The notes beneath the pieces were generated by a model. That model saw only the letters and a program-made list of their open reading frames with translations. It made no database searches and had not been told where the DNA came from. A stretch of DNA of 64,000 nucleotides, taken from positions 657,395 to 721,394 of the forward strand of contig OZ252282.1 of assembly GCA_965250035.1 (NCBI GenBank), written 5' to 3'. The translations under genes were made by a program, and so were the position numbers. Source of the stretch: Enterobacterales bacterium. Lineage in GTDB: Bacteria; Pseudomonadota; Gammaproteobacteria; Enterobacterales; GCA-2746155. How positions within the stretch are numbered: the first letter of the stretch is position 1; every line of letters starts with the position of its first letter. Below are positions 4,758 to 38,638 of this stretch, one piece after another.

Positions 4758-7391
4758 ATGACCACACAAATACCCTACATGACGACCAATGAAATCCGCA
4801 GCAAGTTTCTGGATTTCTTTGCCCGTAACGAACATCAGATTGTCGCTTCCAGCCCCTTGGTGCCCGGTAATGATCCAACGCTGTTGTTCACCAACGCCGG
4901 CATGGTGCAATTCAAAGACACATTCCTCGGCACCGACCCACGCTCTTATGTTAGAGCCACATCCTCGCAACGATGTGTACGTGCTGGTGGGAAGCACAAT
5001 GATTTGGATAATGTAGGTTATACGGCACGGCATCATACCTTCTTTGAGATGCTGGGTAATTTCAGTTTCGGTGATTATTTCAAAGAGGATGCTATACGTT
5101 TTGCCTGGGAATTTCTAACCAAGGAATTAAAGCTGCCGGAAGAGCGCCTGTGGGTGACGGTCTACATCGATGACGATGAGGCGGCGGATATCTGGTTCAA
5201 TAAAATCGGCATAAATCAGGAACGCTTTAGTCGTATGGGCGAGAAGGACAATTTCTGGTCGATGGGTGATACCGGCCCTTGCGGTCCTTGCTCCGAGATC
5301 TTCTTTGATCACGGTCCAGAGGTTGCTGGAGGTCCCCCAGGTTCTCCGGACGAAGATGGTGATCGCTACATTGAAATCTGGAACCTGGTATTCATGCAAT
5401 TCGACCGTTCGGCTGACGGTGAGCTGACGCCACTTCCTAATCCGTCAATCGATACTGGCATGGGACTGGAGCGCACAGCAGCGATCATGCAGGACGTGCA
5501 CAGCAATTATCAGATTGATTTATTTCAGGCGTTGATAAACCGACTGAAAGCAGATAATCAGTTGGCTGAAGACGTTTCATCGGCATCACTGAATGTCATC
5601 GCCGATCACATCCGTTCTTGTGCCTTCCTTATCGCAGATGGCGTGATACCGGCGAATGAGGGCAGGGGCTATGTATTGCGCCGAATCATCCGCAGGGCGG
5701 TTCGCCATGGCCACAAACTCGGTATCGATACGAATTTCTTCTATAAAATGGTGCAGCCTTTGGTGGATCAGATGGGGCATGCCTATCCTGAACTTAAAGA
5801 GCAGCAGGCGCATATCGAGAAACTACTTCTGCGTGAAGAAGAACAGTTTCTACGGACTCTGGAAAACGGCTTGCGTATCTTCGAGGCTGAAACGTCCGAT
5901 CTTAGTGATCAGACCATACCCGGCGAATTAATCTTCAAGCTTTATGATACCTATGGCTTCCCAACCGATTTGACGGCAGATATTGCCCGAGAGCGTGCAT
6001 TGGAAATGGACATGACCGGTTTTGAGGCCTGCATGCAGATACAAAGAGACAAGGCACGCTCTGCCAGTAAATTTGGTATGGCTGATAACGAAGAATTGGA
6101 ATTTAGTTCTCAGACAGCCTTTGAAGGCTATCAGCATGAGCAGGGCGAAGCGAAAATTCTCTATCTCAGCAAGGCGAACGCATCGGTGGATACGCTTGAA
6201 ACCGGAGAGGAGGGTGCTCTGGTACTCGACAAGACGCCATTTTATGCAGAGTCTGGTGGCCAGGTCGGTGATACTGGAATCATCGAGACGGACAGTATGC
6301 GATTTGCTGTCAATGACACTCAAAAGCAGCAAGATATGTTCATTCATTATGGCAAGGTCATTGAAGGGAATCTGGCGGTCGGTGATACGGTTCGTTGCGC
6401 GATTGATGAGGAACGCCGGAAAGCAATCAAAGCAAATCATTCGGCGACACATCTAATGCACGCGGCATTGCAACAGGTGCTAGGCAATCATGTGCAACAG
6501 AAGGGGTCATTAGTAAACGAACATTATCTTAGGTTTGATTTTTCTCATACCGATCCGGTGACCGATGACGAGCTGGATGCGATTGAACGACTCGTTAATG
6601 ACGAAATACGCGCCAATAACCCTGTACAAACTGAATTGATGAGCCCAGATGACGCACAGCAAGCGGGTGCTATGGCGCTGTTTGGCGAAAAGTATGGTGA
6701 TCTGGTACGCGTCCTGACGATGGGCGACTTTTCCAAAGAACTATGTGGTGGGACGCACGTCACGAGTACGGGCGATATTGGGCTGTTCCGAATCAGCGGT
6801 GAAACAGGCATTGCCGCAGGTATTCGTCGAATCGAAGCGGTCACCGCAGCGGGAGCCGTTGATTTTACCCTGTCACAACAACAGACGATTAAACGATTGG
6901 CCGGATTATTAAAAACCGATGCCAATCATAGCGTAGAAAAGGTCGAGCAATTACAGAAGAAAACTAAGCAACTGGAACGTGAGATTGAGAAGCTTAATGC
7001 ACGTATCGCCTCAGGATCAGGCTCTAGTCTGGATGACAGCATTCAGACGGTTGGTGATTTCAAGTTGATCGTTTGCCGTATTGATGACATAGAACCGAAG
7101 GCACTTCGTGAGACAGTGGATAAGCTGAAGGATAAAATTCAGACTGGTATTGTCGTCATGGCAACCGTACGAGGCGATAAGATCAGCCTCATCGCAGGTG
7201 TAACTAAGACCCTCACCAAGCAAATTAATGCCGGTACGGTGGTTAATCATCTCGCAAATCAGGTTGGTGGTAAGGGCGGAGGTCGTCCGGATATGGCCCA
7301 AGCGGGTGGTGATGATGTCGGCGCACTCGATGAAGCCATAAAATCTACCGAGATATGGTTAAAGGACCAACTCGCCTCATTAGAGGCCTAA
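4758..7391 (+). CDS. alaS: alanine--tRNA ligase
   Basis: 877 aa. Class II core ([18 protein letters not shown]), the HSATHLMH motif of the editing/second domain, and a C-terminal [12 protein letters not shown]. The start could also be the second Met at 4776. Confidence 0.97.
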
Positions 7392-7604: not shown

Positions 7605-7802
7605 ATGCTTATATTAACCCGCAGAGTTGGCGAGACGTTAATGATTGGAGATGACGTCACGGTAACCGTATTAGGTGTTAAAGGCAACCAAGTCAGAATC
7701 GGGGTAAACGCACCCAAAGAAGTATCTGTACACAGGGAAGAAATTTACCTGCGTATCCAGGGTGAAAAAGATGATAACGAACCTGACGGTAATAAACTCT
7801 AA
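7605..7802 (+). CDS. csrA: carbon storage regulator CsrA
   Basis: 65 aa beginning [55 protein letters not shown] lies upstream. Confidence 0.97.
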
Positions 7803-8031: not shown

Positions 8032-8124
8032 GGAGAGGTGGCCGAGCGGCTGAAGGCGCTCCCCTGCTAAGGGAGTATAGGGTTTGTAGCCCTATCGAGG
8101 GTTCGAATCCCTCTCTCTCCGCCA
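8032..8124 (+). tRNA. serV: tRNA-Ser (anticodon GCU), class II with long variable arm
   Basis: The hand-folded cloverleaf is as follows. Acceptor GGAGAGG/TCTCTCC. D-arm GCCGAGCGGCTGAAGGC. Anticodon stem CTCCC/GGGAG with loop CTGCTAA. Variable arm TATAGGGTTTGTAGCCCTATC. T-arm GAGGG-TTCGAAT-CCCTC. Discriminator G and an encoded CCA. Its position after csrA matches E. coli serV. Confidence 0.93.
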
Positions 8125-8164
8125 GATACAAAAAAAGCTCCATTCTTGGGGCTTTTTTTGTATC
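8125..8164 (+). terminator. rho-independent (bidirectional-looking) terminator after the tRNA
   Basis: GATACAAAAAAAGC (8125-8138) is the perfect reverse complement of GCTTTTTTTGTATC (8151-8164). There is an A-run on the left arm and a T-run on the right arm. Confidence 0.7.
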
Positions 8165-8195
8165 TGACAGAGTTAGAGTTTGATTCTCACACTCA

Positions 8196-8309
8196 GGGTT
8201 CGACCGAACGCATGCGTTTGGGACGCGTAGCAGTCAGAAAGACTGCGTTAGCGCCCGAAGGGCAAGATTCGTAGAAGCAATACGAATCTTGTCTATCCCT
8301 CTCTCTCTC
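8196..8309 (+). repeat. tRNA-Ser T-arm/3'-end fragment split by a 91-nt hairpin-rich insert
   Basis: GGGTTCGA (8196-8203) and ATCCCTCTCTCTCTC (8295-8309) together reproduce the tRNA segment GGGTTCGA|ATCCCTCTCTCTC. The insert contains a perfect 10-bp hairpin, AAGATTCGTA...TACGAATCTT. Confidence 0.5.
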
Positions 8310-8683
8310 AAATATTAGTCTATTTTCTCATTTGTTAGGTTTTTTGTTAGAAATTTGTTTGGGTTTTGTCAAAATTGACAGGGGGATTTGAGATTGCTTT
8401 TATTGGACACACATCTTATAGAGGAGTAAATTAATATTTCTACAAGGGAGTAATGACTGACGTCAAGGAAAATACAGAGACTATTTCATATGGAGTAATA
8501 TCTAGCTCTCCCTTCTTTTAATGAACTGTTATGCAGTCGAACTTTATACAATCGACTCTAAATAACCACAATTAAGTAAACTGAGCTCTCAAGATTATTC
8601 CAGAATATCTTGTGTGAGATGGGTTTATTTAAGAGGTCTCAATAACTGGATGAAATAATAGCAACTAATTAAGAGGGATTTTA

Positions 8684-11600
8684 ATGGTCGATTTGCGATC
8701 ACAACTATGTACAGATGTAGGTGAGTTTCTGTCTGCGTATAAGTACAAAGAAACTGTAGCTATTGCAGCAGGTCTACTGACACTTCCAAGACTTTCAGCG
8801 AATTCAATAAGGTGTGAAACTCTAGCGCATCTTGCAGTTGCTTACTCGAGAGGAAATAGTCAACCTAACAGAACAACATTCAATACTGCACTAAATGATT
8901 TACTGGGCAACACTAAAGTTGCAATGTTAGAAGACCCTCAAGAGGATGTTTTTGTTTCAAATATCTTAACTGAGATTGGAGATCTTAGGGTGTTTAATGC
9001 ACTTTGGGAAGCCAATGATTACTTCATTCAAGTCCTGATTGATATCGTAACTCGGTACAAGGTACCTGATAGTCTCCAGCAAATAAGAGAGAGCTGTATA
9101 TCTTTGCTCAAATTGAGTGAGGAGGTTGCTTCACGATCTAACTTATCCAGAAATTTCAGTGAAAATTCACGAGACAAACAGAATATCAATGTTCCTAGGT
9201 CCAGTAAATTTGATTCCTTGTCTAAACGAGTTACGTTTACTAATGACGAATTGGAGAACCTAGGGATATCGGTCGAATCAATAGCTCCATTTGTCATTTC
9301 AAATGATGATTTAGTCAATTTGACGCAATCAAAAGTCGGAAACTCAATTTTAGAAAGAAAACCAGTTGTTGAAATTGACGGTAGTTACATACTTACTATT
9401 CCAAGTGCAGTAGGAATAGCTATCAGGTATTACTTTTTAGCTGGTTGTGAAGCAAATAGTAGCTTGAGTGTTTTTTCGAGACTACTAGCTGATTATCAAG
9501 CTAAACAATTAACAGATGATATTCTATTTGAATTCAAAGGCTCATTTAAATCAATAAAGCCTGAGTTGCCTGATATCGCAAATATACCTTCAATGCATGC
9601 GTTGTTATTAAAGGATAATTCTGGAACTTATCTTCATGCAGTTATTCTACATGATAAAAATGAACAAATAATTGATGAAGGTATGGATAGTTACTTTATC
9701 CCTTCAGAAGAGCAAATTGAGGCTCTTAATCAATTTTTCCATGCAGTCGCTGAATGCTGTAAATCACAGGATGATTTTGTATCGGGTTCTTCGCTAATCA
9801 CGTTTGGTGGTCTAGGAAGAGGATATAACCTCGGATTTGATAAATGGCCTGATGACTGGGGTTTTACTGCACTAAGCTTAAATGACTTACTCTTATTAAG
9901 TAATTCTAAAAGTAGACCTTTAGAGGAATTGTTTGAATGTATAAGACAGAAGCAGTGGATGGAAGACAACGGTGTAAAGGTACATAACATCAATGGAGAT
10001 ATGAATTATTTTGGATTTTGGAAGCAAAATGACTACAAGTGTATTCCTGATGAGATTCCTGTTTCAGAAAATGGCTTCATCAGTTTATACACTGATTTTG
10101 TGTTTTCTCTTAGAAGAGATTTGAGAATAGTAGGAGACAAACATAGCGTTAAATTTATCGACGGTACCTGGAAGAGAGTTGAGCGATTAACAAGAGATTC
10201 TTTTTATGAAGGGATGAAGAATAAACCAATTTACGCATCTGTCGATCACATACTTAGTGGTGTTCTGAATGGACTTGTCGAATCAGACTTTATTTACCTT
10301 TGGTTCGGAGTAGAGTTTGAAAATGAAACATTAGAACGGTCAATGATCTACGAGTGGTGGTCTGGTTTCATTGATTCGGTAGAAGAAGCTCTCAGTTTTA
10401 TCTCCTCTAATGTAACCATTGAAGAGTGTTATTCGTTACAAGTACTAATTGATTTTTCGAATATTACATCAACTGAACAGCTGAATTTAGATTCTCAAGA
10501 AAATAGAGGTTACAGTGTTAATTGGAATATTGATGTTTGTACAATACAACTTGCACCAAATTTCTTGGCAAATTTTGCACAAGTAGACAATGTTGGTGAA
10601 AAGTTAGTTCTTTATCAAATTCTATACAGTATTTCAGACTATTTGGCTGGGAAGGGGCATGATATTTATGAGTATATCGATAGAGCCATAGACCATGTTT
10701 TAGGTGATTCGGGTGTTCGGCTTCTCCATATATTTATGTCATTTGATCAAGCTGAATTTTTACTAAATTCAGAGTCACGCAAACCAATATTTATCGACAA
10801 AAAGAAAACAACATTTGATTTAATTCGAATTAGTAAGTCTTTGGGGTTATACAACGAGGAGTATATAGGGAAGCGTAATTGTGGTGCAATTTTACATAGT
10901 CTTGTCGACGAAATTTGGGTCAGAATTAGTGCTGTTTTATCTAAGGTAAAAAAGAAATCTATACTAAATGAGTTAGTATCACTTGTTAATGCGATAGAGC
11001 AAGATCGCGGGCAGTGGAACAGAACGGCACGAGCCGTTTATGCAATTTATTCTAAACATGACGATGTTATTAGGGTCGCTCGTGATAGAGAGTCCAATAG
11101 GAGTTTGGCATCTTTATGCTTACGTTCATTAATTGAAATGTCATTATGTGAATGTCCTGACGAATCAGAAATACTTATTAATGAGGCTATTATTGGTGAT
11201 TTACTCTCACTTACTTCTTTATTAGTAAATATCGCTTCAGATTCTGATGCTATTCACTGGGGGCTCGTTGCTCCAAAACTAATCTTAAACATGAATGGCA
11301 CATATTTAATTCCTACAGATGTAATGGATGAAATGCTAGTACCTTACTATACAGGGCACTTTGGTATTCAATTTGGAGGAGCAATAGAAGATTATGAAGA
11401 TCTTTATGATGCAAAGGAAATTGAGAAGACAGATGTTCAAGTTGGTGTTTTTGGCGAAGAGTTTGATAATGCTTTATCTGAAGAATATGGGCTTTTAGCA
11501 CATCATATAATCGAATGTTGGTCAGAAATCATTGACCTGCATATAGAATCATCCTGTACATCGATAACAATTAGCCGGGATGCCATAATCAGTCATATTG

Positions 11601-12376
11601 TAGAAAAAAGACAGTTAGAAACAGAAATTGTGGTGCGATTCTTCCGAGCCTTCACATTATTCACAAGGAGTAATTGGTCTAACGTTCCCGAAGGCTTCTC
11701 ATTTAGAGATATTGCGCCCTGGAAGTTTAAAAGAAGACTAAGTTGCCTAGTCAAACCTATAATTCAACTTAACGATGAAGAGGTTTTCTTAAGTTTATCA
11801 TTAATCCGTCTAGGTATTGGCTATTTTCTTGATCGAGCAAAACGTGGTGAATTTAATACTGAGTTTTTTGAATCTACAGGTATGCGTACTTATGTGGGGT
11901 CAATGATCGAAAAAAGAGGCGCGGATTTTACTGAATTAGTTGCATCGAAACTTGAGGCTGATAAATGGTTTGTCAATAAAGAACTTCTCATGAAAACAGT
12001 AGGTGCAACTCAAGAACTTGGTGATATTGATGTGTTAGCAATTAAAGGTGGTGTGATGCTAATTTTCGAATGTAAAAAACTACAAATGGCAAAAACAATC
12101 TCTGAAATTGCAGATGTTTGTAATAGGTTTAGAGGAAAGGAAAAAGATGAACTTAGGAAACATTTGAATCGAGTCGATTGGTCATTAAATAACCTTAATA
12201 TCATGTTGCAGCGGCTAAATTATGATGGGAAGGTTTTGTCTATACGGAGTGCTCTTCTCACAAGCACAGATATGCCTATGAAGTATAAAAATGATTTACC
12301 GATAAATAGTAAAGATATTATCTCTTATAGAGAAATTGATAACTGGTTATCAACTTTAGATTTTCCAAGCTTATAA
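8684..12376 (+). CDS. large hypothetical protein (1230 aa) with a C-terminal PD-(D/E)xK nuclease-like motif
   Basis: A long uninterrupted ORF with SD AAGAGGGA upstream. No P-loop was seen. The C-terminal segment GDIDVLAIKGGVMLIFECKK (nt 12023-12079) fits the D...ExK restriction-endonuclease-fold signature. The rest has no motif I recognise. Confidence 0.75.
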   Translation: MVDLRSQLCTDVGEFLSAYKYKETVAIAAGLLTLPRLSANSIRCETLAHLAVAYSRGNSQPNRTTFNTALNDLLGNTKVAMLEDPQEDVFVSNILTEIGDLRVFNALWEANDYFIQVLIDIVTRYKVPDSLQQIRESCISLLKLSEEVASRSNLSRNFSENSRDKQNINVPRSSKFDSLSKRVTFTNDELENLGISVESIAPFVISNDDLVNLTQSKVGNSILERKPVVEIDGSYILTIPSAVGIAIRYYFLAGCEANSSLSVFSRLLADYQAKQLTDDILFEFKGSFKSIKPELPDIANIPSMHALLLKDNSGTYLHAVILHDKNEQIIDEGMDSYFIPSEEQIEALNQFFHAVAECCKSQDDFVSGSSLITFGGLGRGYNLGFDKWPDDWGFTALSLNDLLLLSNSKSRPLEELFECIRQKQWMEDNGVKVHNINGDMNYFGFWKQNDYKCIPDEIPVSENGFISLYTDFVFSLRRDLRIVGDKHSVKFIDGTWKRVERLTRDSFYEGMKNKPIYASVDHILSGVLNGLVESDFIYLWFGVEFENETLERSMIYEWWSGFIDSVEEALSFISSNVTIEECYSLQVLIDFSNITSTEQLNLDSQENRGYSVNWNIDVCTIQLAPNFLANFAQVDNVGEKLVLYQILYSISDYLAGKGHDIYEYIDRAIDHVLGDSGVRLLHIFMSFDQAEFLLNSESRKPIFIDKKKTTFDLIRISKSLGLYNEEYIGKRNCGAILHSLVDEIWVRISAVLSKVKKKSILNELVSLVNAIEQDRGQWNRTARAVYAIYSKHDDVIRVARDRESNRSLASLCLRSLIEMSLCECPDESEILINEAIIGDLLSLTSLLVNIASDSDAIHWGLVAPKLILNMNGTYLIPTDVMDEMLVPYYTGHFGIQFGGAIEDYEDLYDAKEIEKTDVQVGVFGEEFDNALSEEYGLLAHHIIECWSEIIDLHIESSCTSITISRDAIISHIVEKRQLETEIVVRFFRAFTLFTRSNWSNVPEGFSFRDIAPWKFKRRLSCLVKPIIQLNDEEVFLSLSLIRLGIGYFLDRAKRGEFNTEFFESTGMRTYVGSMIEKRGADFTELVASKLEADKWFVNKELLMKTVGATQELGDIDVLAIKGGVMLIFECKKLQMAKTISEIADVCNRFRGKEKDELRKHLNRVDWSLNNLNIMLQRLNYDGKVLSIRSALLTSTDMPMKYKNDLPINSKDIISYREIDNWLSTLDFPSL

Positions 12377-12410
12377 ATTGAATTCATTACACAGTTGTAT
12401 GCTCACATTT

Positions 12411-12480
12411 GAGAGGCGTTCCCTCGCTAGGGGAGTATAACTACACACTTCTTATACTTAGAATCCCTATCTCTCCATCA
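12411..12480 (+). pseudogene. degenerate tRNA-Ser 3' fragment (anticodon arm to 3' end)
   Basis: The sequence is GAGAGGCGTTCCCTCGCTAGGGGAGTATA...GAATCCCTATCTCTCCATCA. It aligns to the tRNA from AAGGCGCTCCCCTGCTAAGGGAGTATA to GAATCCCTCTCTCTCCGCCA. The variable arm and T stem are replaced. Confidence 0.55.
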
Positions 12481-12497
12481 TGAAAATTATTTTATTA

Positions 12498-12529
12498 AGA
12501 GAGAGGGATGATTTGGAATCCCTCTCTCT
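12498..12529. repeat. inverted repeat built from the tRNA 3'-end core
   Basis: AGAGAGAGGGAT, an 8-nt loop, then ATCCCTCTCTCT. This is a 12-bp perfect stem whose right arm equals the tRNA T-stem/acceptor sequence. Confidence 0.6.
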
Positions 12530-12690
12530 CAGGACATATAGGGTTTGTCCGAATTTTTGTCCGAAATTAATAGTATCTAATATGTAACTATCTGAATTTA
12601 AATGAAGTTTTTGTACGTTCAACGAACACTTGGCTACAAACACAAAAAATTCTGTAACGCACAGATAAATATAGAAAAAATAGCGGGTGC

Positions 12691-12783
12691 GAAGAGGGCT
12701 AATAATGGTGGTTTTCGTACCTCTGCTACGGGAGTATAGGGTTTGTAGCCCTCTCGAGGGTTCGAATCCCTCTCTCTCCGCCA
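12691..12783 (+). pseudogene. 93-nt tRNA-Ser-like chimera (probable att remnant): perfect 3' half, diverged 5' half
   Basis: Same length as the real tRNA. Positions 12729-12783 match the tRNA 3' 55 nt with one mismatch and include CCA. The anticodon loop CTGCTAC retains GCT. The D-arm is AT-rich and unpaired, and the anticodon stem is weakened. Confidence 0.65.
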
Positions 12784-12795
12784 AATAACAAAAAA

Positions 12796-12837
12796 GCCCA
12801 TTAAAATCAATAAGATAGCAATGGGTTTTATTTTTTC
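12796..12837 (+). terminator. possible terminator after the tRNA-like remnant
   Basis: GCCCATT...AATGGGT stem (one G-T pair, long loop) followed by TTTATTTTTT. Confidence 0.4.
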
Positions 12838-12876
12838 ATCCCCCAAAACGTCCTCCATTGATTCTTGTTCATAAGC

Positions 12877-13566
12877 TCATTCATGTATCACTTGGTACGG
12901 ACAATCATCATCCCATTCATGCTGTAAATGTGCTGGAAGCATAATTACTAGGTTCGTTTCAGAAAGCTGACTTAGGGCTCTACTAATTTGATTCATATGA
13001 TATCCGCTGTAGAGAACATTATATGCAGACTTGTATATTAAGCTCTCATCCATGTATTCCAGTAATTCGTCATACTGCAATTTAAACTTTTCTTGGGAAT
13101 GAAAGTTTCCTGAATATAATATCGTATCAATTAAATTTTTATTCGTTTTTATAGGTCCTGAATAAGAGCAATCATATAGCGAAACATCATCGCTTAATTT
13201 TTTCTCCCATGTAGATCTCATATGGCTAAAAAATTTATTAACATGGATATTTTTTACTTCTCTTTCCATGTAGTTGCATATTGAGACAAAACTCATAGGT
13301 TCAGTTTTCATATAAAACAATCGCAATGACCACATAAATAGAGCAATATCTCTAAGTGTGATTTGTTTGGTGGTGTCAACCCATCTTTGACCAACTCGCT
13401 CGATACTGATACGAGCGAATAATTTCCCTTCGTTCATTAACCTTTCTGAATGCCGAATAAACTCATTCTTAACATACCAGAAGTTTTCTGCCTTTCCTCC
13501 ATTATCCACTTCAGGGAAAGTGGTACCTGATATATCTATAGGTATTTGTCTTCCAGTCCAATCCAT
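12877..13566 (-). CDS. hypothetical protein (229 aa)
   Basis: Clean ORF with no motif I recognise. AT-rich. Divergent from the DUF2971 gene. Confidence 0.55.
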   Translation of the reverse strand: MDWTGRQIPIDISGTTFPEVDNGGKAENFWYVKNEFIRHSERLMNEGKLFARISIERVGQRWVDTTKQITLRDIALFMWSLRLFYMKTEPMSFVSICNYMEREVKNIHVNKFFSHMRSTWEKKLSDDVSLYDCSYSGPIKTNKNLIDTILYSGNFHSQEKFKLQYDELLEYMDESLIYKSAYNVLYSGYHMNQISRALSQLSETNLVIMLPAHLQHEWDDDCPYQVIHE

Positions 13567-13815: not shown

Positions 13816-14772
13816 ATGAATGATATACATCAACAAGCACTAGAAATTTTTTCGCCTAACTATATAGAGCGGGTGAACCGGGTCAAAACAGAACAACTAC
13901 AATTCGTGCAATATACAAGTGCTGAAGCAGCAATGAGTATGATACAGAATCAAGAAATTTGGTTGCGAAATACGCAGTGCATGAATGATTTCAACGAAGT
14001 TGAACACGGGCTTCGTTGCCTGAATGATGCCATCCGTGATCATGAAGTTGGTAAAAATTTTCAAGCTCTTTTTGATGAGTTATTCCCTGGTGTAAGGAAG
14101 ACATTTTTTGAATCCTTTGAGAGTTGGATCCCGCACTTCAAAACGAGCACCTTTATTACATGCGTCTCAGAGCACCCCCAAGATGAAGATAAATATGGAC
14201 GATTATCAATGTGGCGAGCCTATGGAGGGAAATCATCAGTAGCGCTAGTCCTGAATTCTACCCCTTTTTTTGCTGAAACAGATGTTTTTTACGCTTATTC
14301 GTATCCGGTTGCCTACCTAGATAAAGATGATTTTAATCAAGAGTTTACAAAGTTGACCGAGAGGATGCATGATGCGAAATCTTTCCTGAAAGAGTTAGGC
14401 TCTGATGTAGTCTCAAATTATCTTTTTCAGACATTTCAAAGTGCAGTCTTTAGTGTAAAACACCCAGGTTTTAAAGAAGAGCGAGAATGGAGGGTTGTTT
14501 ATAATCCTTCATATAGACGATCTGAGAAAATGTCTATGGAAATTAGAAGTATTAGTGGGGTTCCCCAAGAAATTCAAAAATTACCTTTAAAAGACTTTCC
14601 TGACGACGGATTCACCGGAGCAACAATCCCACAATTTTTAAAACAAATAATTATTGGTCCGAATGATCAACAGATAGTACTCGGAAAAGCATTTGCACAA
14701 TTACTCTCACGAGCTGGTGTTGATGACCCTTGGAGTAGAATTAGTTATTCAGGCATACCATTAAGGGATTGA
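13816..14772 (+). CDS. DUF2971-family protein
   Basis: 318 aa. The N-terminal YTSAEAAMSMIQNQEIWLRNTQCMNDFNE and the internal LSMWRAYGG match my recollection of the DUF2971 pattern (YTs..a..il.n..lw.s....mND..E; mW..Y). Confidence 0.7.
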   Translation: MNDIHQQALEIFSPNYIERVNRVKTEQLQFVQYTSAEAAMSMIQNQEIWLRNTQCMNDFNEVEHGLRCLNDAIRDHEVGKNFQALFDELFPGVRKTFFESFESWIPHFKTSTFITCVSEHPQDEDKYGRLSMWRAYGGKSSVALVLNSTPFFAETDVFYAYSYPVAYLDKDDFNQEFTKLTERMHDAKSFLKELGSDVVSNYLFQTFQSAVFSVKHPGFKEEREWRVVYNPSYRRSEKMSMEIRSISGVPQEIQKLPLKDFPDDGFTGATIPQFLKQIIIGPNDQQIVLGKAFAQLLSRAGVDDPWSRISYSGIPLRD

Positions 14773-15109: not shown

Positions 15110-17530
15110 ATGAAAACTCACGGAATAGATATTGTTAAACTCGCACAGATAATTGCTATACTCAGTTTGTTCGGGTGCGTATCTAACCTTAATGCGACTG
15201 GTTATGTCGACCGACAGACACGAACTGCTTACTACCAGACTTGTATATCTAATGGGCACGATTATTTTACTAACGTCCCTCACAACCAAATATTTCTAGA
15301 GATAGAAATTGGTGAGAATGATGCTATTACACCAGGCATGTGCGTTGGAACTTCCATCGATCATGTCCACAATACCTATACATGTACACGATCTGGGCCA
15401 GAATATATTGTTCAGTCAACATCAGGAACAGGAAATCCAATCCCCGACTCATATCAAGTAAGGCAAACGTTTCACTGCGTTAGTTCTACATACAATGACA
15501 CGACCACCTCTTCACAAGTAGCAGCGACAGCGATTAAAACGTCAAAAACTGTCACTGATTGTGGATTAACCCCCACGCATCCCAAGAAAGTCACTGTAAA
15601 TGGGCAATTGAAATGTGAGCCAGAGCCTATTCCATGTGAAATTGACACACAACAGAAATGCAGTTCAATACCAAATGGCTCTAACCCAATTTATCAAGCA
15701 ATTTCTCCAGAGTTATCCTTATCACAAAATGCCCCTAATCCAATTAATATTGGCAGCTGCAGTACGAATACATCCACAATACCTGATGAAATTAATGACT
15801 ATCAAGCGATGAGTATTGAAAGAGATTTTCAATTAAATACTGAGTTTGATACACCACTCGTCACAATCCACAACCCTCATACAGGCAATGCCTACTCATT
15901 TTCTGATGATGGGGCTGGTGGTTTTACGACTGAGTCAATCCATAATGCAAGGCTTGAAGGCACCACGGATGGCCAGGGTAATCTGACAGGGTATAACTTG
16001 GTACTTAGCAATGGTTCAGTTGAGAACTACAATGTGAATGGTCGCCTATCCTCAATTACCCAACGAAATGGACAGGGTATCACCATTGGGTATAACTCTA
16101 ATGATAAACCAACAACGCTTACAACCTCATACGGAAGAGTGACGACTTTAAGCTACGACACATCAGGTAAGTTATCGACAATTATTGAAGCTGACAACCA
16201 AACAACCACACTTGAGTATGATACATCTGGAAGGCGTAAAAAAATCATTTTTGATGATAATACTAGTGGCACACTGACTGATAATCCATATGTTGAATAT
16301 CATTATGATGATACCAATAACACAGGTTTGATTACCCGTATATCTGATGAGTCAGGTACTGAGCTTAGAAGCTGGACATACGATGTGGATGGCAATGTTC
16401 TATCTGAAACTGATTCAGGTGGCACTCAATACTTCACATATAATGTCGATGATTCGATCACGATTACGAACAAATTAGGAAAAGATACAACCTATCACTA
16501 TACGATTATTAATGGTGAACGACTCATCACACAGGTTGAAGGCGTTGCGTCGGCAAATTGTGCAGGCGCTAATCAGTATAAGTCATATGATAGGAATGGT
16601 GCACTTATAAGTAAGACTGACTGGTCTGGCAATACGACGAATATCTTGAGAGACAGTCGAGGTAACGAGATAAGACGGATCGAAGCACTAGGTAGCGTTG
16701 ATGAGAGAGTAATACATACCGAGTGGCATGATACATACAAGCTACCTGTTAGAGTAATTGATGACTCTCGACAAACAATATTCAGCTATGACAGCAATGG
16801 AAACTTGCTTAGTAAGGCCACTTCTGAAGCTGACCCAAATTATACAGTCCCAGACAGTGCATCTGTATCACCCCCTACCGACTACATTGCCTATTGGCCT
16901 ATGGAGTCAATTAGTTCAAACACCATCACAGACCAAGTTGGTAGTCATGATGCTTCAGTCGTAGGCAGTCCATCTATCAGTGCTTCTGGCCGAGTTGGTA
17001 ATGCACTCAGTCTTAGTGGGAGTGGTCAGTATGCAACGATTATTGATGATCTGTCATTACAGCCCACGGAAGTTACTATTTGTACATACGTCAAAGGCAA
17101 CGCAAACGCGATAAATGATACTGTTTTTCAATCCTATTCAAAAACGCCCAATATCTCCGGATTCAAACTGCAAGCGTGGTCAAACGGATATATAGGTTTT
17201 CTTGTGGGCGATTATTCAGGTGCTTCTAAAAATGTAGGATACGCTGCGATAAGTATCGGAAAGGTCAATGATAATACCTGGCATCATGTATGTGCCTCAT
17301 ACGATGGAAGCTACCTAAGAGGATATTATGATGGAGTGCTGACAAGCGAAAAGCCATACAACAACGGCATAAAATATTCGTTGACGAATTTTGTTGCAAT
17401 TGGGACATTGTTTAACACAAGCACTCAGCATACTACATTTAATTTCAACGGACTGATAGATGAGTTGAAATTGTATGGTCGAGCTCTTAGTCATGAAGAA
17501 GTGTTGGCGATATTTCTAGAAAACGAATAA
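15110..17530 (+). CDS. A1: secreted YD-repeat protein with Cys-rich N-domain and C-terminal LamG (Laminin_G_3-like) domain
   Basis: 806 aa with SD AGGAAG. The hydrophobic signal ends ...LSLFGC, a possible lipobox. YD/RHS repeats include NYNVNGRLSSITQRNG, LSYDTSGKL, LEYDTSGRR, WTYDVDGNV and FSYDSNGNLL. The last 216 aa (16880-17527) carry LamG hallmarks: WHHVCASYDGSYLRGYYDG and FNGLIDELKLYGRALSHEEV. Confidence 0.88.
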   Translation: MKTHGIDIVKLAQIIAILSLFGCVSNLNATGYVDRQTRTAYYQTCISNGHDYFTNVPHNQIFLEIEIGENDAITPGMCVGTSIDHVHNTYTCTRSGPEYIVQSTSGTGNPIPDSYQVRQTFHCVSSTYNDTTTSSQVAATAIKTSKTVTDCGLTPTHPKKVTVNGQLKCEPEPIPCEIDTQQKCSSIPNGSNPIYQAISPELSLSQNAPNPINIGSCSTNTSTIPDEINDYQAMSIERDFQLNTEFDTPLVTIHNPHTGNAYSFSDDGAGGFTTESIHNARLEGTTDGQGNLTGYNLVLSNGSVENYNVNGRLSSITQRNGQGITIGYNSNDKPTTLTTSYGRVTTLSYDTSGKLSTIIEADNQTTTLEYDTSGRRKKIIFDDNTSGTLTDNPYVEYHYDDTNNTGLITRISDESGTELRSWTYDVDGNVLSETDSGGTQYFTYNVDDSITITNKLGKDTTYHYTIINGERLITQVEGVASANCAGANQYKSYDRNGALISKTDWSGNTTNILRDSRGNEIRRIEALGSVDERVIHTEWHDTYKLPVRVIDDSRQTIFSYDSNGNLLSKATSEADPNYTVPDSASVSPPTDYIAYWPMESISSNTITDQVGSHDASVVGSPSISASGRVGNALSLSGSGQYATIIDDLSLQPTEVTICTYVKGNANAINDTVFQSYSKTPNISGFKLQAWSNGYIGFLVGDYSGASKNVGYAAISIGKVNDNTWHHVCASYDGSYLRGYYDGVLTSEKPYNNGIKYSLTNFVAIGTLFNTSTQHTTFNFNGLIDELKLYGRALSHEEVLAIFLENE

Positions 17531-17647
17531 GAAAACTATGGTCATGAAACTCTGAATATATGTAATGCTCACACTAAACATATCATTTCATTTATAAATT
17601 AATAATAGCCAAATACAACCCGTTAATGAAATCCTCGAGGAAGATTA

Positions 17648-20065
17648 ATGAACATGTCTGTAATTAAGTATCTCTTTATTTGCTGTGTAATCTCATACCA
17701 AATATTTTTAGAATCTGTGTATGCAGACTATATTGACGCAACGGCGGTGCCTAATCAAACAGCATATCAATGTAGATCAGCTGGAGTCGAGGGAGAGAGT
17801 GCCGTTGGAATAGGCGGCTGGTTCAAAATATATACTCCATCCCCTGCCACTAATGAAGCTCTCTTCGCTGCTGCAAATCAATGTAAACAATCTCAGTTGC
17901 CTCCTGACTTTGAAATCAGTGGGGTACATGCTCAACATTGCGTTGCAAAAGCATATACAGAGATTCAGTCACATTGGTATGGAACACTTTATTTAGGAAA
18001 CGACTATCGTTGCACACGACATGACGATTACACAACTAAGACCAAGTATCACGTTTTTGGACAGTTTTATATCCTTGGCAATGAGACGCAATATACTTGT
18101 CCAAACCCAGATTATCCAAAGCTGACCCAAGTTAATGGTGAGCAAAAGTGTGCTTCTATAGCGATACCATGTGAGTCACCATTAAATTTTAAAGAATGTG
18201 GCGCTGAAGAAAGTGGCAGTAATCAAATATTCGCAGAATTGAGCGAAGAAGTAAGCGCTTCAAGCAACAGCTTTAATCCAATTGATATAGGTTCTTGTAC
18301 GACTAGCAATCCTTTGCCTCAAGCCACGCCTAATGACAATCAAGTGACAAATATTGATAGAGACTTTCAGCATCTTTCGAATCTCGATGAGCCTGTCATA
18401 ACAATTCAAATTCCATTTGAAGGGAAATCGTATCAATTTTCTGATAGTGGTGGAAACAACTGGTCACCGATGAACCAAGCAAACCAAGCCTCCTTAGATG
18501 TAGCACGCGATGGCAATGGTGTAGTTACTGGCTATAACTTAACACTTAAAAATGGGGTTGTTGAACAGTACTCCTTGAATGGCCGCTTGATGTCAATTAA
18601 ACAACGTAACGGCCAAACTTCAACGCTTGGCTATAATGGCAATGACCAAGTCGTATCACTCACCGATAGTTTTGGTAAGGTGACCAGTCTTTCATATGAT
18701 GGAGCTGCTAATCTCACATCTGTAACAGGTCCAGACAACCAGACAACTAAGCTTGAGTATAATGCGTCAGGAAAACGGTCTAAGATTATTTACGCCGACG
18801 AAACGCCATTAACAGATAATGATAATCCCTTCATTCAGTACCATTATGATGATACGAATCATAATGGTTTGATCACTCAGGTGACCAACCAAGATGGGAT
18901 TCAGCTCAAAGTATGGACATATGACTCTGAGGGCAGAGTGCTAACAGTCAGCTCACCACAAGGGCACGAGAATAAATCCTACGATTACAATCCTGATGGC
19001 ACAACGACGGTTACAAACGCACTGGGGAAAGAAACCATTTATCATTTCAGCCACATCAATGGGGTGCGGTTAATAACCCAAGTCGAAGGTGTAGCATCGG
19101 CAAGTTGTGCAGGTGCGCATCAATCAAAATCTTATGATGAGAATGGATATTTAATAAGTAAGACAGATTGGAGCGGAAATACGACTTCTTACATTAGAAA
19201 TGCGAAGGGCCAAGAGCTGAGTCGCACTGAAGGGGTGGGGAGTAACTCTGAGCGCGTAGTAACTACTGAATGGCATGAGGCACATAATGTCCCAACACTC
19301 ATTACTGACGAGCATCAAAAGACCCAGTTTATTTACGATTATGAGAGTGGGGTATTACAGAAGAAAATTGTTCTACCCCCTAATGGTATAGAAGAGCCAC
19401 AAGTCGAATTGCCAATTGACCATATTGCTCATTGGACGATGGATAGTGTAAGTGGCGTTACAGTCTCAGATGTCACTGGGGGACATGATGCAACTTCAAT
19501 TAGTAATCCCTCGTTTGTTTCAGGCAAGAACCAAAATTCAATTTCACTCAATGGTTCTGGACAGTATTTAAACATTACTAACCACCTAGATTTGCGCCCG
19601 AATGAAATGACGGTTTGCGCTTGGGTTAAAGGGAATTCGAATACATCGAGTGATGCGATATTTCAGTCATACTCTAGGCGACCTTATCATTCAGGGTTTT
19701 TGTTATATGCAACTAGTAGTGGAAATGCAGCCATTCAGGTGGCAGCCAATACGGGTGGTCTTAATAATGATGACTACGCTGCGTTAGGGATAGGGTATGT
19801 GAATGATAATACCTGGCATCATATTTGCGCTTCGTACGATGGTAAAACCATTAAGGTATATTATGACGGCGACTATATTAGATCTAAACAATTTGATGGT
19901 GGCTTAGACTATGCCACAAACAATTATGTTGCAATTGGGGCTATGTATACAGGGCCTAACAGGCATACAGGCTATGACTTTCACGGAGAATTAGATGAGA
20001 TTAAGTTATTCACCCGAGTGCTAAATGGATACGAAATAAATGAAATTTATCGAGAGTTTGAGTAA
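17648..20065 (+). CDS. A2: paralog of A1 (signal peptide, Cys-rich N-domain, YD repeats, C-terminal LamG)
   Basis: 805 aa with SD GAGGAAG. Signal ...ESVYA|DY. YD repeats include LSYDGAANL, LEYNASGKR and WTYDSEGRV. LamG tail at 19418-20062 (WHHICASYDGKTIKVYYDG, FHGELDEIKLFTRVLNGYEI). By eye, roughly half of the YD-region residues are identical to A1. Confidence 0.88.
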   Translation: MNMSVIKYLFICCVISYQIFLESVYADYIDATAVPNQTAYQCRSAGVEGESAVGIGGWFKIYTPSPATNEALFAAANQCKQSQLPPDFEISGVHAQHCVAKAYTEIQSHWYGTLYLGNDYRCTRHDDYTTKTKYHVFGQFYILGNETQYTCPNPDYPKLTQVNGEQKCASIAIPCESPLNFKECGAEESGSNQIFAELSEEVSASSNSFNPIDIGSCTTSNPLPQATPNDNQVTNIDRDFQHLSNLDEPVITIQIPFEGKSYQFSDSGGNNWSPMNQANQASLDVARDGNGVVTGYNLTLKNGVVEQYSLNGRLMSIKQRNGQTSTLGYNGNDQVVSLTDSFGKVTSLSYDGAANLTSVTGPDNQTTKLEYNASGKRSKIIYADETPLTDNDNPFIQYHYDDTNHNGLITQVTNQDGIQLKVWTYDSEGRVLTVSSPQGHENKSYDYNPDGTTTVTNALGKETIYHFSHINGVRLITQVEGVASASCAGAHQSKSYDENGYLISKTDWSGNTTSYIRNAKGQELSRTEGVGSNSERVVTTEWHEAHNVPTLITDEHQKTQFIYDYESGVLQKKIVLPPNGIEEPQVELPIDHIAHWTMDSVSGVTVSDVTGGHDATSISNPSFVSGKNQNSISLNGSGQYLNITNHLDLRPNEMTVCAWVKGNSNTSSDAIFQSYSRRPYHSGFLLYATSSGNAAIQVAANTGGLNNDDYAALGIGYVNDNTWHHICASYDGKTIKVYYDGDYIRSKQFDGGLDYATNNYVAIGAMYTGPNRHTGYDFHGELDEIKLFTRVLNGYEINEIYREFE

Positions 20066-20184
20066 GGGCTTTGATAATGGATATTTTAATTAATTGTCAA
20101 CATTCGCATTACATTGTTCGAGTTACATGTAATGCAATTGATTCTACCAAATATTGGATACACCGATAATACCAAGGAAGTTAA

Positions 20185-38311: not shown

Positions 38312-38638
38312 ATGTCCGCAAAATCAGCTGTTATTTGTCATACGAGAGTTAATATGCTTAATGAAATAATTCAGAGATTACAATCACTAGATAGCGAATC
38401 TACGAATGGTGGAATATCAAATCATTATTTCGAAGTATCGAATAATGACGTCGAAACAGTTATTTCTGCAAATCGAGAGGGATTAATTTGGTTTGCTTTA
38501 GAAGCATTAAAACTGGCAGAAAATTCTGTAGAAGGTGCTCACTTACACATAGATGAGTATGGAATAGCTGATAAAGTGGATAAAGGATTAGTGTTATCTT
38601 TTAAGAATGCAAACTGGTCTGGTGCAAATGACATATAA
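38312..38638 (+). CDS. small hypothetical cassette ORF
   Basis: 108 aa, with an alternative start at MLNEII (38354). I have a vague memory of similarity to small polymorphic-toxin immunity proteins (…GAHLHIDE…). This is unverified. Confidence 0.45.
   Translation: MSAKSAVICHTRVNMLNEIIQRLQSLDSESTNGGISNHYFEVSNNDVETVISANREGLIWFALEALKLAENSVEGAHLHIDEYGIADKVDKGLVLSFKNANWSGANDI

Follow-up and report, generated by a model that had tools for sequence, protein, structure and literature searches.

A divergent putative Upx anti-phage nuclease in foreign DNA at a csrA–tRNA-Ser(GCT) hotspot of a marine-type gammaproteobacterium

A 64,000-nucleotide stretch of the genome of an Enterobacterales bacterium (contig OZ252282.1, positions 657,395 to 721,394 of the forward strand; hereafter the window) contains, at 8684-12376 on the plus strand, an open reading frame (ORF) of 1230 amino acids (aa) with an ATG start, which we refer to as upx. 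We read this ORF as a functional, divergent Upx, i.e. a single-protein anti-phage nuclease, acquired horizontally in foreign DNA at a csrA–tRNA-Ser(GCT) hotspot, and give this reading a probability of roughly 0.78. An earlier note, made from the sequence of the same DNA, had pointed to the gene as a candidate for an anti-phage function, and homology to Upx makes such a role the best reading of the protein. The chief value of the result lies in annotation: a nameless gene from a poorly sampled marine-type gammaproteobacterium can now be assigned to Upx, with its active site intact. The protein adds a divergent example to a defence family that is already known and was recently characterised.

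Assignment to the Upx family

The Upx defence family is credited to Gao et al. 2020 by two papers of 2026, PMC13601566 and PMC13099982. The Upx protein of Salmonella enterica NCTC6026 (SeUpx; Gao_Upx; PDB 9wuf) guards against phage PhiV-1 (PMC13099982; PMC13601566). With a cryo-EM structure and these mechanistic papers already at hand, the term "uncharacterised", used in the earlier note, no longer applies.

The PADLOC model of Upx (PDLC02221) matched residues 16-1202 of the 1230-aa protein over model positions 44-1250 of 1271 (E 2.2e-142), and NCBIfam model NF042954, "anti-phage protein Upx" (Upx_antiphage), matched the same span (E 1.3e-157, 526 bits). Pfam family PF28173 (Upx-like) is assigned, as a precomputed annotation, to the identical protein in public collections. 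The sole sequence match in the PDB was 9wuf_A, the cryo-EM structure of SeUpx (E 2.4e-86, residues 12-1172). An exhaustive HMMER search of 1.84 billion cluster representatives with residues 31-1230 recovered 2047 relatives at E<=1e-3, 650 of them at E<=1e-30; with few exceptions, these align end to end and have lengths of 1200-1300 aa. A relative is encoded in 239 species-representative genomes of many phyla (the genome of the window lies outside this set), while the identical protein is confined to the assemblies of one organism. The protein has no match in PHROGs, and none of the sources searched gives it a name. All the tests of sequence and structure that could be applied assign the protein to Upx, except for the equivalog threshold of NF042954. 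As judged by sequence, the protein is a member of the Upx family and is not, under the NCBI rule, an equivalog of the Salmonella protein.

Predicted structure and the C-terminal nuclease

An AlphaFold2 model of residues 31-1230 had a predicted local distance difference test score (pLDDT) of 90.4 and a predicted template modelling score (pTM) of 0.86. When the PDB was searched with this model using Foldseek, 9wuf was the sole significant match (E 4.5e-62, 21% identity; TM-scores 0.77/0.76 over 1266 columns), the second-best match having an E value of 0.011. On the basis of the model, the protein is predicted to share the three-domain fold of the solved Upx structure. AlphaFold, Foldseek and PADLOC had been named as checks in the earlier note, and each of them pointed to Upx. 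In the first ~1050 residues, the same note had recognised no motif of an NTPase, helicase or methylase, and the Pfam scan, likewise, showed no such domain in that part.

Within the N-terminal domain (NTD), EDPQEDVF is the motif with the highest conservation, and the locus-finding program also selected it as the family search pattern. Its residues E83, D84 and D88 are kept in 182, 177 and 176 of 184 relatives, respectively. The near-invariant EDPxEDVF is absent from the residues that the available part of PMC13099982 lists as mutated for SeUpx.

The PD-(D/E)xK motif that had been spotted at the C-terminus is a genuine active site. In a direct alignment to 9wuf_A, the GDID of the window protein falls on G1158-D1161 of SeUpx and its ECK on E1176-K1178, D1116, E1129 and K1131 being the counterparts of SeUpx D1161, E1176 and K1178. 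This triad is invariant, in 34/34 and 183/184 full-length relatives. The models place D1116 in strand beta2 (residues 1114-1121) and both E1129 and K1131 in beta3 (1124-1131). A separate model of the last 196 residues (pLDDT 93.4) matched 9wuf and then PD-(D/E)xK nucleases only: the endonuclease domain of the R2 retrotransposon, Cdn1, Hjc, McrC, Can2/Card1 and cap-snatching endonucleases. The possibility that the C-terminal fold is not that of a nuclease, also considered in the earlier note, was thus not borne out. Defence by SeUpx is lost with E1176A alone or with E1176A/K1178A (PMC13601566; PMC13099982).

Proposed mode of action

Apo Upx is a monomer composed of an N-terminal, a middle and a C-terminal domain (PMC13099982). 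Large terminases of diverse phages activate, through their ATPase domain, three Upx homologues, one pair of which is only 16% identical, and this activation results in nuclease-dependent toxicity (PMC13601566). According to the same paper, AlphaFold 3 models show unfolded terminase strands threaded through the N-terminal sensor, a genome-wide toxicity screen found terminase, and not gp16, to be the sole activator, and one homologue defends against T4, a phage without gp16. For SeUpx, PMC13099982 describes Mg2+-dependent 3′-to-5′ degradation of single-stranded DNA (ssDNA) in vitro, a second, weak nuclease in the NTD, and activation by the ejection protein gp16 with survival of the infected cells.

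From this literature on homologues we infer the anti-phage activity, trigger, substrate and cell outcome for the protein of the window. By homology to SeUpx and the two other homologues, it would be a monomer of three packed domains, in which the large, NTPase-free N-terminal and middle parts would act as sensor and regulator. The sensor would recognise a protein that the phage makes during infection, with the large-terminase ATPase domain as the most likely candidate, and this recognition would unleash the C-terminal Mg2+-dependent PD-(D/E)xK nuclease (D1116, E1129, K1131). The unleashed nuclease would then degrade nucleic acid and so halt the multiplication of the phage. This terminase-sensor model is favoured for the present protein because it was demonstrated across very divergent homologues and, by an argument from conservation, because the columns of SeUpx D122 and D127 are poorly kept and EDPxEDVF is almost invariant.

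An alternative, which we consider unlikely, is that the protein works as a dual nuclease. An early injected, gp16-like virion protein would lift the inhibition exerted by the middle domain, a non-canonical N-terminal nuclease and the C-terminal one would degrade phage ssDNA intermediates directly, and the cell would survive (direct immunity). The biochemistry, pull-downs and growth curves by multiplicity of infection reported for SeUpx (PMC13099982) speak for this alternative. So does the alignment of the N-terminal region compared (window residues 83-146, positions 8930-9121), where SeUpx D122, D127, R129, E147 and D173, called catalytic there, correspond to L95, D100, R102, D120 and E146, four of the five being chemically matched. 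However, the D122 column, Leu here, is mostly hydrophobic among the 184 relatives, and Asn occupies the D127 column in 122 of them, which makes a family-wide N-terminal nuclease unlikely; the finding of terminase as sole activator and the defence of a homologue against T4 (PMC13601566) also stand against it. By sequence comparison, the N-terminal residue set of SeUpx is probably no defining feature of Upx. The prediction for the family as a whole is an invariant C-terminal triad, with two of the residues called catalytic in the Salmonella NTD poorly kept. As a divergent, naturally isolated single-gene Upx, the protein could be used to see which of the activation models generalises, with respect to both the trigger (terminase or gp16) and the fate of the cell (death or direct immunity).

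Integrity, selection and genomic context of upx

The upx frame is full length and intact, and all family-invariant residues are retained. In comparison with the three closest homologues (72-74% aa identity), the ratio of nonsynonymous to synonymous substitution rates (dN/dS, Nei-Gojobori) is 0.115-0.126; the gene evolves under purifying selection. The intact frame, the invariant residues and a dN/dS of ~0.12 together favour a functional protein over a relic. A Shine-Dalgarno-like AAGAGGGA can be read at 8671-8678, 5 bases 5′ of the ATG. The promoter-like site in the leader (Table 1) is a match of a consensus scan and is not evidence of function.

It is very improbable that upx is a stranded, useless remnant of a decayed island or a gene of inter-element conflict (e.g. 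anti-plasmid). Such a reading would fit the lack of any remaining integrase or transposase in the ~44-kb region to which the gene belongs, the decay of the att-like repeats around it, and the presence of the protein in the assemblies of a single organism. Against it stand the full-length frame with every family-invariant residue, the low dN/dS and the good ribosome-binding site. Moreover, relatives matched only 5 of 72,556 plasmid records, none of 50,697 phage records and one locus among the viral contigs of IMG/VR. This near-absence speaks against carriage by plasmids or phages and gives no indication of a function linked to mobile elements. As for a novel nuclease system unrelated to known defence families, the "orphan" of the earlier note, we give it next to no weight and reject it: the protein is nameless in the sources searched and local Pfam yields only a sub-threshold Hjc match, but there are full-length matches to three independent Upx models, including those of PADLOC and NCBIfam, a match to 9wuf in both sequence and fold, and more than two thousand related cluster representatives.

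Among 120 neighbouring proteins of 30 relative loci, no family is common to more than three, and upx is a stand-alone gene with no obligatory partner. The neighbours are housekeeping genes amid integrases, reverse transcriptases, MADS components, a methylase, a HEPN protein and HipA. In four loci (L020, L063, L076 and L013), upx adjoins a gene for Avs3a (2135 aa), a PD-T4-6-like kinase, an Avs1b-like nuclease-NTPase or a type III restriction enzyme, as identified by PADLOC. These neighbours agree with the reported occasional linkage of Upx to Avs1 (PMC13601566); in Pseudomonas, Upx is confined to one island hotspot (PMC12629846). The association of Upx with defence islands, which the earlier note had proposed to look for, is only partial and not universal, many neighbours of relatives being housekeeping genes. 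A tRNA gene lies within 10 kb of 16 of 60 relative loci, which is not clearly above background and was not used as evidence. The large neighbours in three further loci (L021, L028 and L035; 1292-1454 aa) had no match in PADLOC. Large ORFs beside relatives were also considered as second copies of Upx and rejected, as they show no BLASTP similarity.

At the DNA level, similarity to the closest homologues extends over 8627-12354, i.e. from at most ~57 bp upstream of upx to a point inside its 3′ end. Since the similarity is confined to the gene, the ends of a shared cassette are not definable; no flanking repeats were found around the closest homologues. In Celerinatantimonas, upx resides in another AT-rich stretch, beside relA. 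The confinement of similarity to upx and this different site indicate that the gene has repeatedly been transferred alone. Hardly any difference separates the upx of L005, a 5-kb contig that was binned as "Eubacteriales", from the upx of Alishewanella longhuensis (L006; proportion of synonymous differences, pS, 0.004), and the Celerinatantimonas copy (L004) is separated by a synonymous distance (dS) of only 0.19. Such closeness points to mis-binning, to a very recent transfer between marine gammaproteobacteria, or to both.

Several observations weigh against the protein being a functional Upx. Its identity to SeUpx is only about 21-25%, and its score of 526 bits does not reach the 1900 bits of the NF042954 equivalog cut-off. 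Leu occupies the position of SeUpx D122. The contexts of relatives are mixed, with many housekeeping neighbours, and nothing in the window demonstrates expression of upx. The homologues with known activity are SeUpx, HpUpx and PbUpx, none of which comes from the marine gammaproteobacterial clade. Finally, the two mechanistic papers conflict with regard to the trigger (terminase versus gp16) and the outcome (toxicity and abortive infection versus direct immunity).

The Upx module at the tRNA-Ser(GCT) gene

The upx gene is preceded by alaS (4758-7391), csrA (7605-7802) and the tRNA-Ser(GCT) gene (Table 1), and csrA is followed by the same tRNA-Ser in the related loci L084-L087. The GC content of upx, about 0.35 (0.34-0.37) versus 0.47-0.54 in the flank with the pyruvate dehydrogenase and alaS genes, bears out the AT-richness noted before. 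No other plausible ORF was found between the tRNA gene and position 12876 (8125-12876), so upx is, as had been stated, the sole cargo between att-like repeats.

The last 25 nt of the tRNA-Ser gene, GGTTCGAATCCCTCTCTCTCCGCCA, occur in exactly two copies, at 8100-8124 and 12759-12783, with 0 expected by chance, and a 78-nt repeat (D1; 8061-8138 versus 12720-12797) is 92% identical. On the left side, a terminator-like inverted repeat (I1) spans 8111-8178, and a structured, old tRNA-3′-like remnant at 8290-8307 ends in TGTCTATCCCTCTCTCTC (repeat family D2). Conservation between the window and L085 3′ of tRNA-Ser extends to about 8310; given this native sequence, the module begins at the remnant and not at the tRNA. 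Homology to relatives ends at 8311, the start of the AT-rich leader. Within the native segment, the flanks CGAAGGG ... TCTATCCC, conserved between window positions 8190-8310 and L085 positions 9232-9345, enclose a hairpin of 14-15 bp that has its own sequence in each of the two genomes (fold z-scores -4.8 and -3.6). The segment 8190-8310 looks like an old remnant of a tRNA T-arm and acceptor with a palindromic insertion.

On the right side, the decayed tRNA-Ser copy begins 38 nt past the upx stop codon and is followed by two more tRNA-derived pieces, the last of which, a pseudo-tRNA, forms the right border of the module. ARAGORN predicted a second tRNA-Ser(GCT) at 12693-12783, which was rejected as a false positive: its 3′ 64 nt alone are derived from the tRNA, and its 5′ half is unrelated. 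Rfam did not recognise 12693-12783 as a tRNA even at E<=1, compared with 55 bits for the real gene. Of the tRNA-flanked islet proposed in the earlier note, one flanking tRNA is thus real, whereas the other is a 3′-half fragment.

Table 1. Features of the Upx module and its borders (positions in the window)
Feature	Position	Strand	Basis and remarks
Intact tRNA-Ser(GCT), integration hotspot	8032-8124	+	ARAGORN; Rfam, 55.4 bits (gathering score 29)
Native segment 3′ of tRNA, left edge of Upx module	8125-8310	+	Conserved with L085
AT-rich leader of Upx module	8311-8683	+	Promoter-like site 8404-8432; Shine-Dalgarno-like AAGAGGGA
upx gene, 1230 aa	8684-12376	+	ORF, PADLOC, NCBIfam, PDB, Pfam, AlphaFold2 model
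NTD, residues 1-487	8684-10144	+	Approximate; SeUpx alignment
EDPQEDVF, residues 83-90, most conserved NTD motif	8930-8953	+	Family alignment
Middle domain, residues 488-684	10145-10735	+	Approximate; SeUpx alignment
C-terminal domain (CTD), residues 685-1230	10736-12373	+	Approximate; SeUpx alignment
PD-(D/E)xK nuclease core, residues ~1065-1223	11876-12352	+	alpha-beta-beta-beta-alpha-beta in models
Active-site stretch GDIDVLAIKGGVMLIFECKK, residues 1113-1132	12020-12079	+	SeUpx alignment
Catalytic triad codons, D1116; E1129; K1131	12029-12031; 12068-12070; 12074-12076	+	
Decayed tRNA-Ser 3′ copy (anticodon-arm and T-arm/acceptor pieces)	12414-12475	+	D3 85%, D2 89%
Second tRNA-3′ fragment, TTGGAATCCCTCTCTCTC fused to out-of-order variable-arm piece	12513-12548	+	D2 94%, D4 81%
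Third and best copy, tRNA-Ser 3′ half with 14 nt of downstream sequence	12713-12797	+	D1

The repeats flanking Upx are the exact break points of two independent public assemblies, as expected for a repeat-bounded unit. In two independent run assemblies the Upx module forms its own contig of ~4.7 kb: L001 (4687 bp) spans repeat to repeat (8095-12781), and L002 (4629 bp; 8153-12781) starts just past the left copy and ends inside the right one. Such separate contigs are a useful signature of a repeat-bounded unit and no proof of a circular form.

Two linked ideas may be added, to which we give slim odds. In the first, a 4.4-kb Upx module with tRNA-Ser 3′ fragments on the left (8290-8307) and on the right (12458-12475 and 12513-12530) could be an integrase-less defence cassette, which the tRNA-Ser-targeting integrases of other elements might swap in trans at the anciently used csrA–tRNA-Ser hotspot. 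In the second, the marine Upx clade, like most Upx without the full N-terminal residue set, could act purely as a protein sensor and carry one nuclease only. If this were true, the "dual nuclease" property would be a peculiarity of the Salmonella clade.

The 44-kb insertion

Related genomes were located via AlaS homologues with 74-84% identity; an exact look-up of CsrA, aimed at empty sites, returned the same organism only. The relatives share the order of pyruvate dehydrogenase genes, an lrp-like gene, alaS, csrA and tRNA-Ser. In two of them (L084 and L087), tRNA-Ser is directly followed by genes for a TonB-dependent receptor and for a glycosidase of family GH3, which are homologous to the window from 52187 onward, and in L085 by an ETF-QO gene homologous to the window from 56674 onward. 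With an empty site in these three loci, ~44 kb of the window (roughly 8311-52000) are lineage-specific, and the Upx islet is the first module of this region. The islet of the earlier note therefore stands as a repeat-bounded module, but as part of a much larger insertion without an integrase; the note's picture of a large, nuclease-tailed, stand-alone gene in horizontally acquired DNA at a tRNA hotspot agrees with these findings.

None of the scanned ORFs of at least 100 aa between 8.3 and 52 kb gave an integrase or transposase match, and no tRNA-derived repeat was found at the far (~52 kb) end. The GC content is low up to ~45 kb, beyond which there are ordinary-looking genes with higher GC. 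The most fitting description of the island is a tRNA-hotspot insertion that has decayed or is composite. The locus documents a csrA–tRNA-Ser(GCT) hotspot at which ~44 kb of defence and polymorphic-toxin genes have been gathered and no integrase has been kept.

Directly after the pseudo-tRNA there is a divergent gene pair. The first gene, a 229-aa ORF (12877-13566, minus strand), has no match in Pfam, NCBIfam, PADLOC or PHROGs, and for this reason its interpretation as a decayed integrase was rejected. The second (13816-14772, plus strand) encodes a 318-aa DUF2971 protein (phrog_1762) with weak AbiGi-like and REase-like matches. The pair may be another defence candidate. Further on, 15110-25454 contains three tandem ~800-aa paralogues with RHS repeats and a C-terminal LamG-like domain, followed by an RHS-core protein, and 29484-38638 encodes a 1736-aa RHS/Big_7/Y_Y_Y protein, a 987-aa RHS protein and an Imm32 immunity gene; all these genes, that of Imm32 included, constitute a polymorphic-toxin cluster. 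A stand-alone SMODS-associated NUDIX protein (E 2.8e-35) is encoded at 28212-29027 on the minus strand, with no recognisable nucleotidyltransferase adjoining.

Comparison with known systems

The insertion resembles tRNA-integrated islands in its position next to a tRNA gene, its direct repeats of the tRNA 3′ end, its low GC, the empty site in relatives and its cargo of defence and toxin genes. It differs from them in the lack of an integrase, in the ~190 nt of native sequence after the tRNA, and in the lack of a tRNA repeat at the far (~52 kb) end.

The nucleases of the NERD, Hjc and R2 restriction-like endonuclease (R2-RLE) types have in common with the protein of the window the PD-(D/E)xK core fold and catalytic motif, found here in the last ~170 residues (PADLOC NERD match, E 1e-4; sub-threshold Pfam Hjc match, E 0.08). 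They are, however, small stand-alone enzymes or domains of other machines, whereas here the nuclease is the tail of a 1230-aa putative sensor.

The proposed logic, in which binding of the phage large terminase to a large sensor turns on an effector nuclease, resembles that of the antiviral STAND NTPases Avs1-3, and some upx genes adjoin Avs genes (L020 and L076). In contrast to Avs1-3, the present protein has no STAND, P-loop or NACHT domain in Pfam, no Avs match in PADLOC and no similarity to them in sequence or fold, and the apo Upx described in PMC13099982 is monomeric. As it lacks a STAND NTPase, the 1230-aa protein is not an Avs.

The closest likeness is to SeUpx: the two proteins (1230 and 1272 aa) are collinear end to end, are predicted to have the same three-domain fold (TM 0.77) and the same C-terminal D...ExK triad in beta2/beta3, and are both encoded by a stand-alone gene without an NTPase. 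They differ by the low identity (~21-25%), the 526 versus 1900 bits, the Leu at the position of D122 and the host, which is here a marine-type gammaproteobacterium. HpUpx of Hydrobacter penzbergensis and PbUpx of Pyrinomonadaceae defend and sense terminase ATPase domains at identities to SeUpx down to 16% (PMC13601566). Since such distant homologues still defend, the divergence of the protein described here lies within the functional span of Upx.

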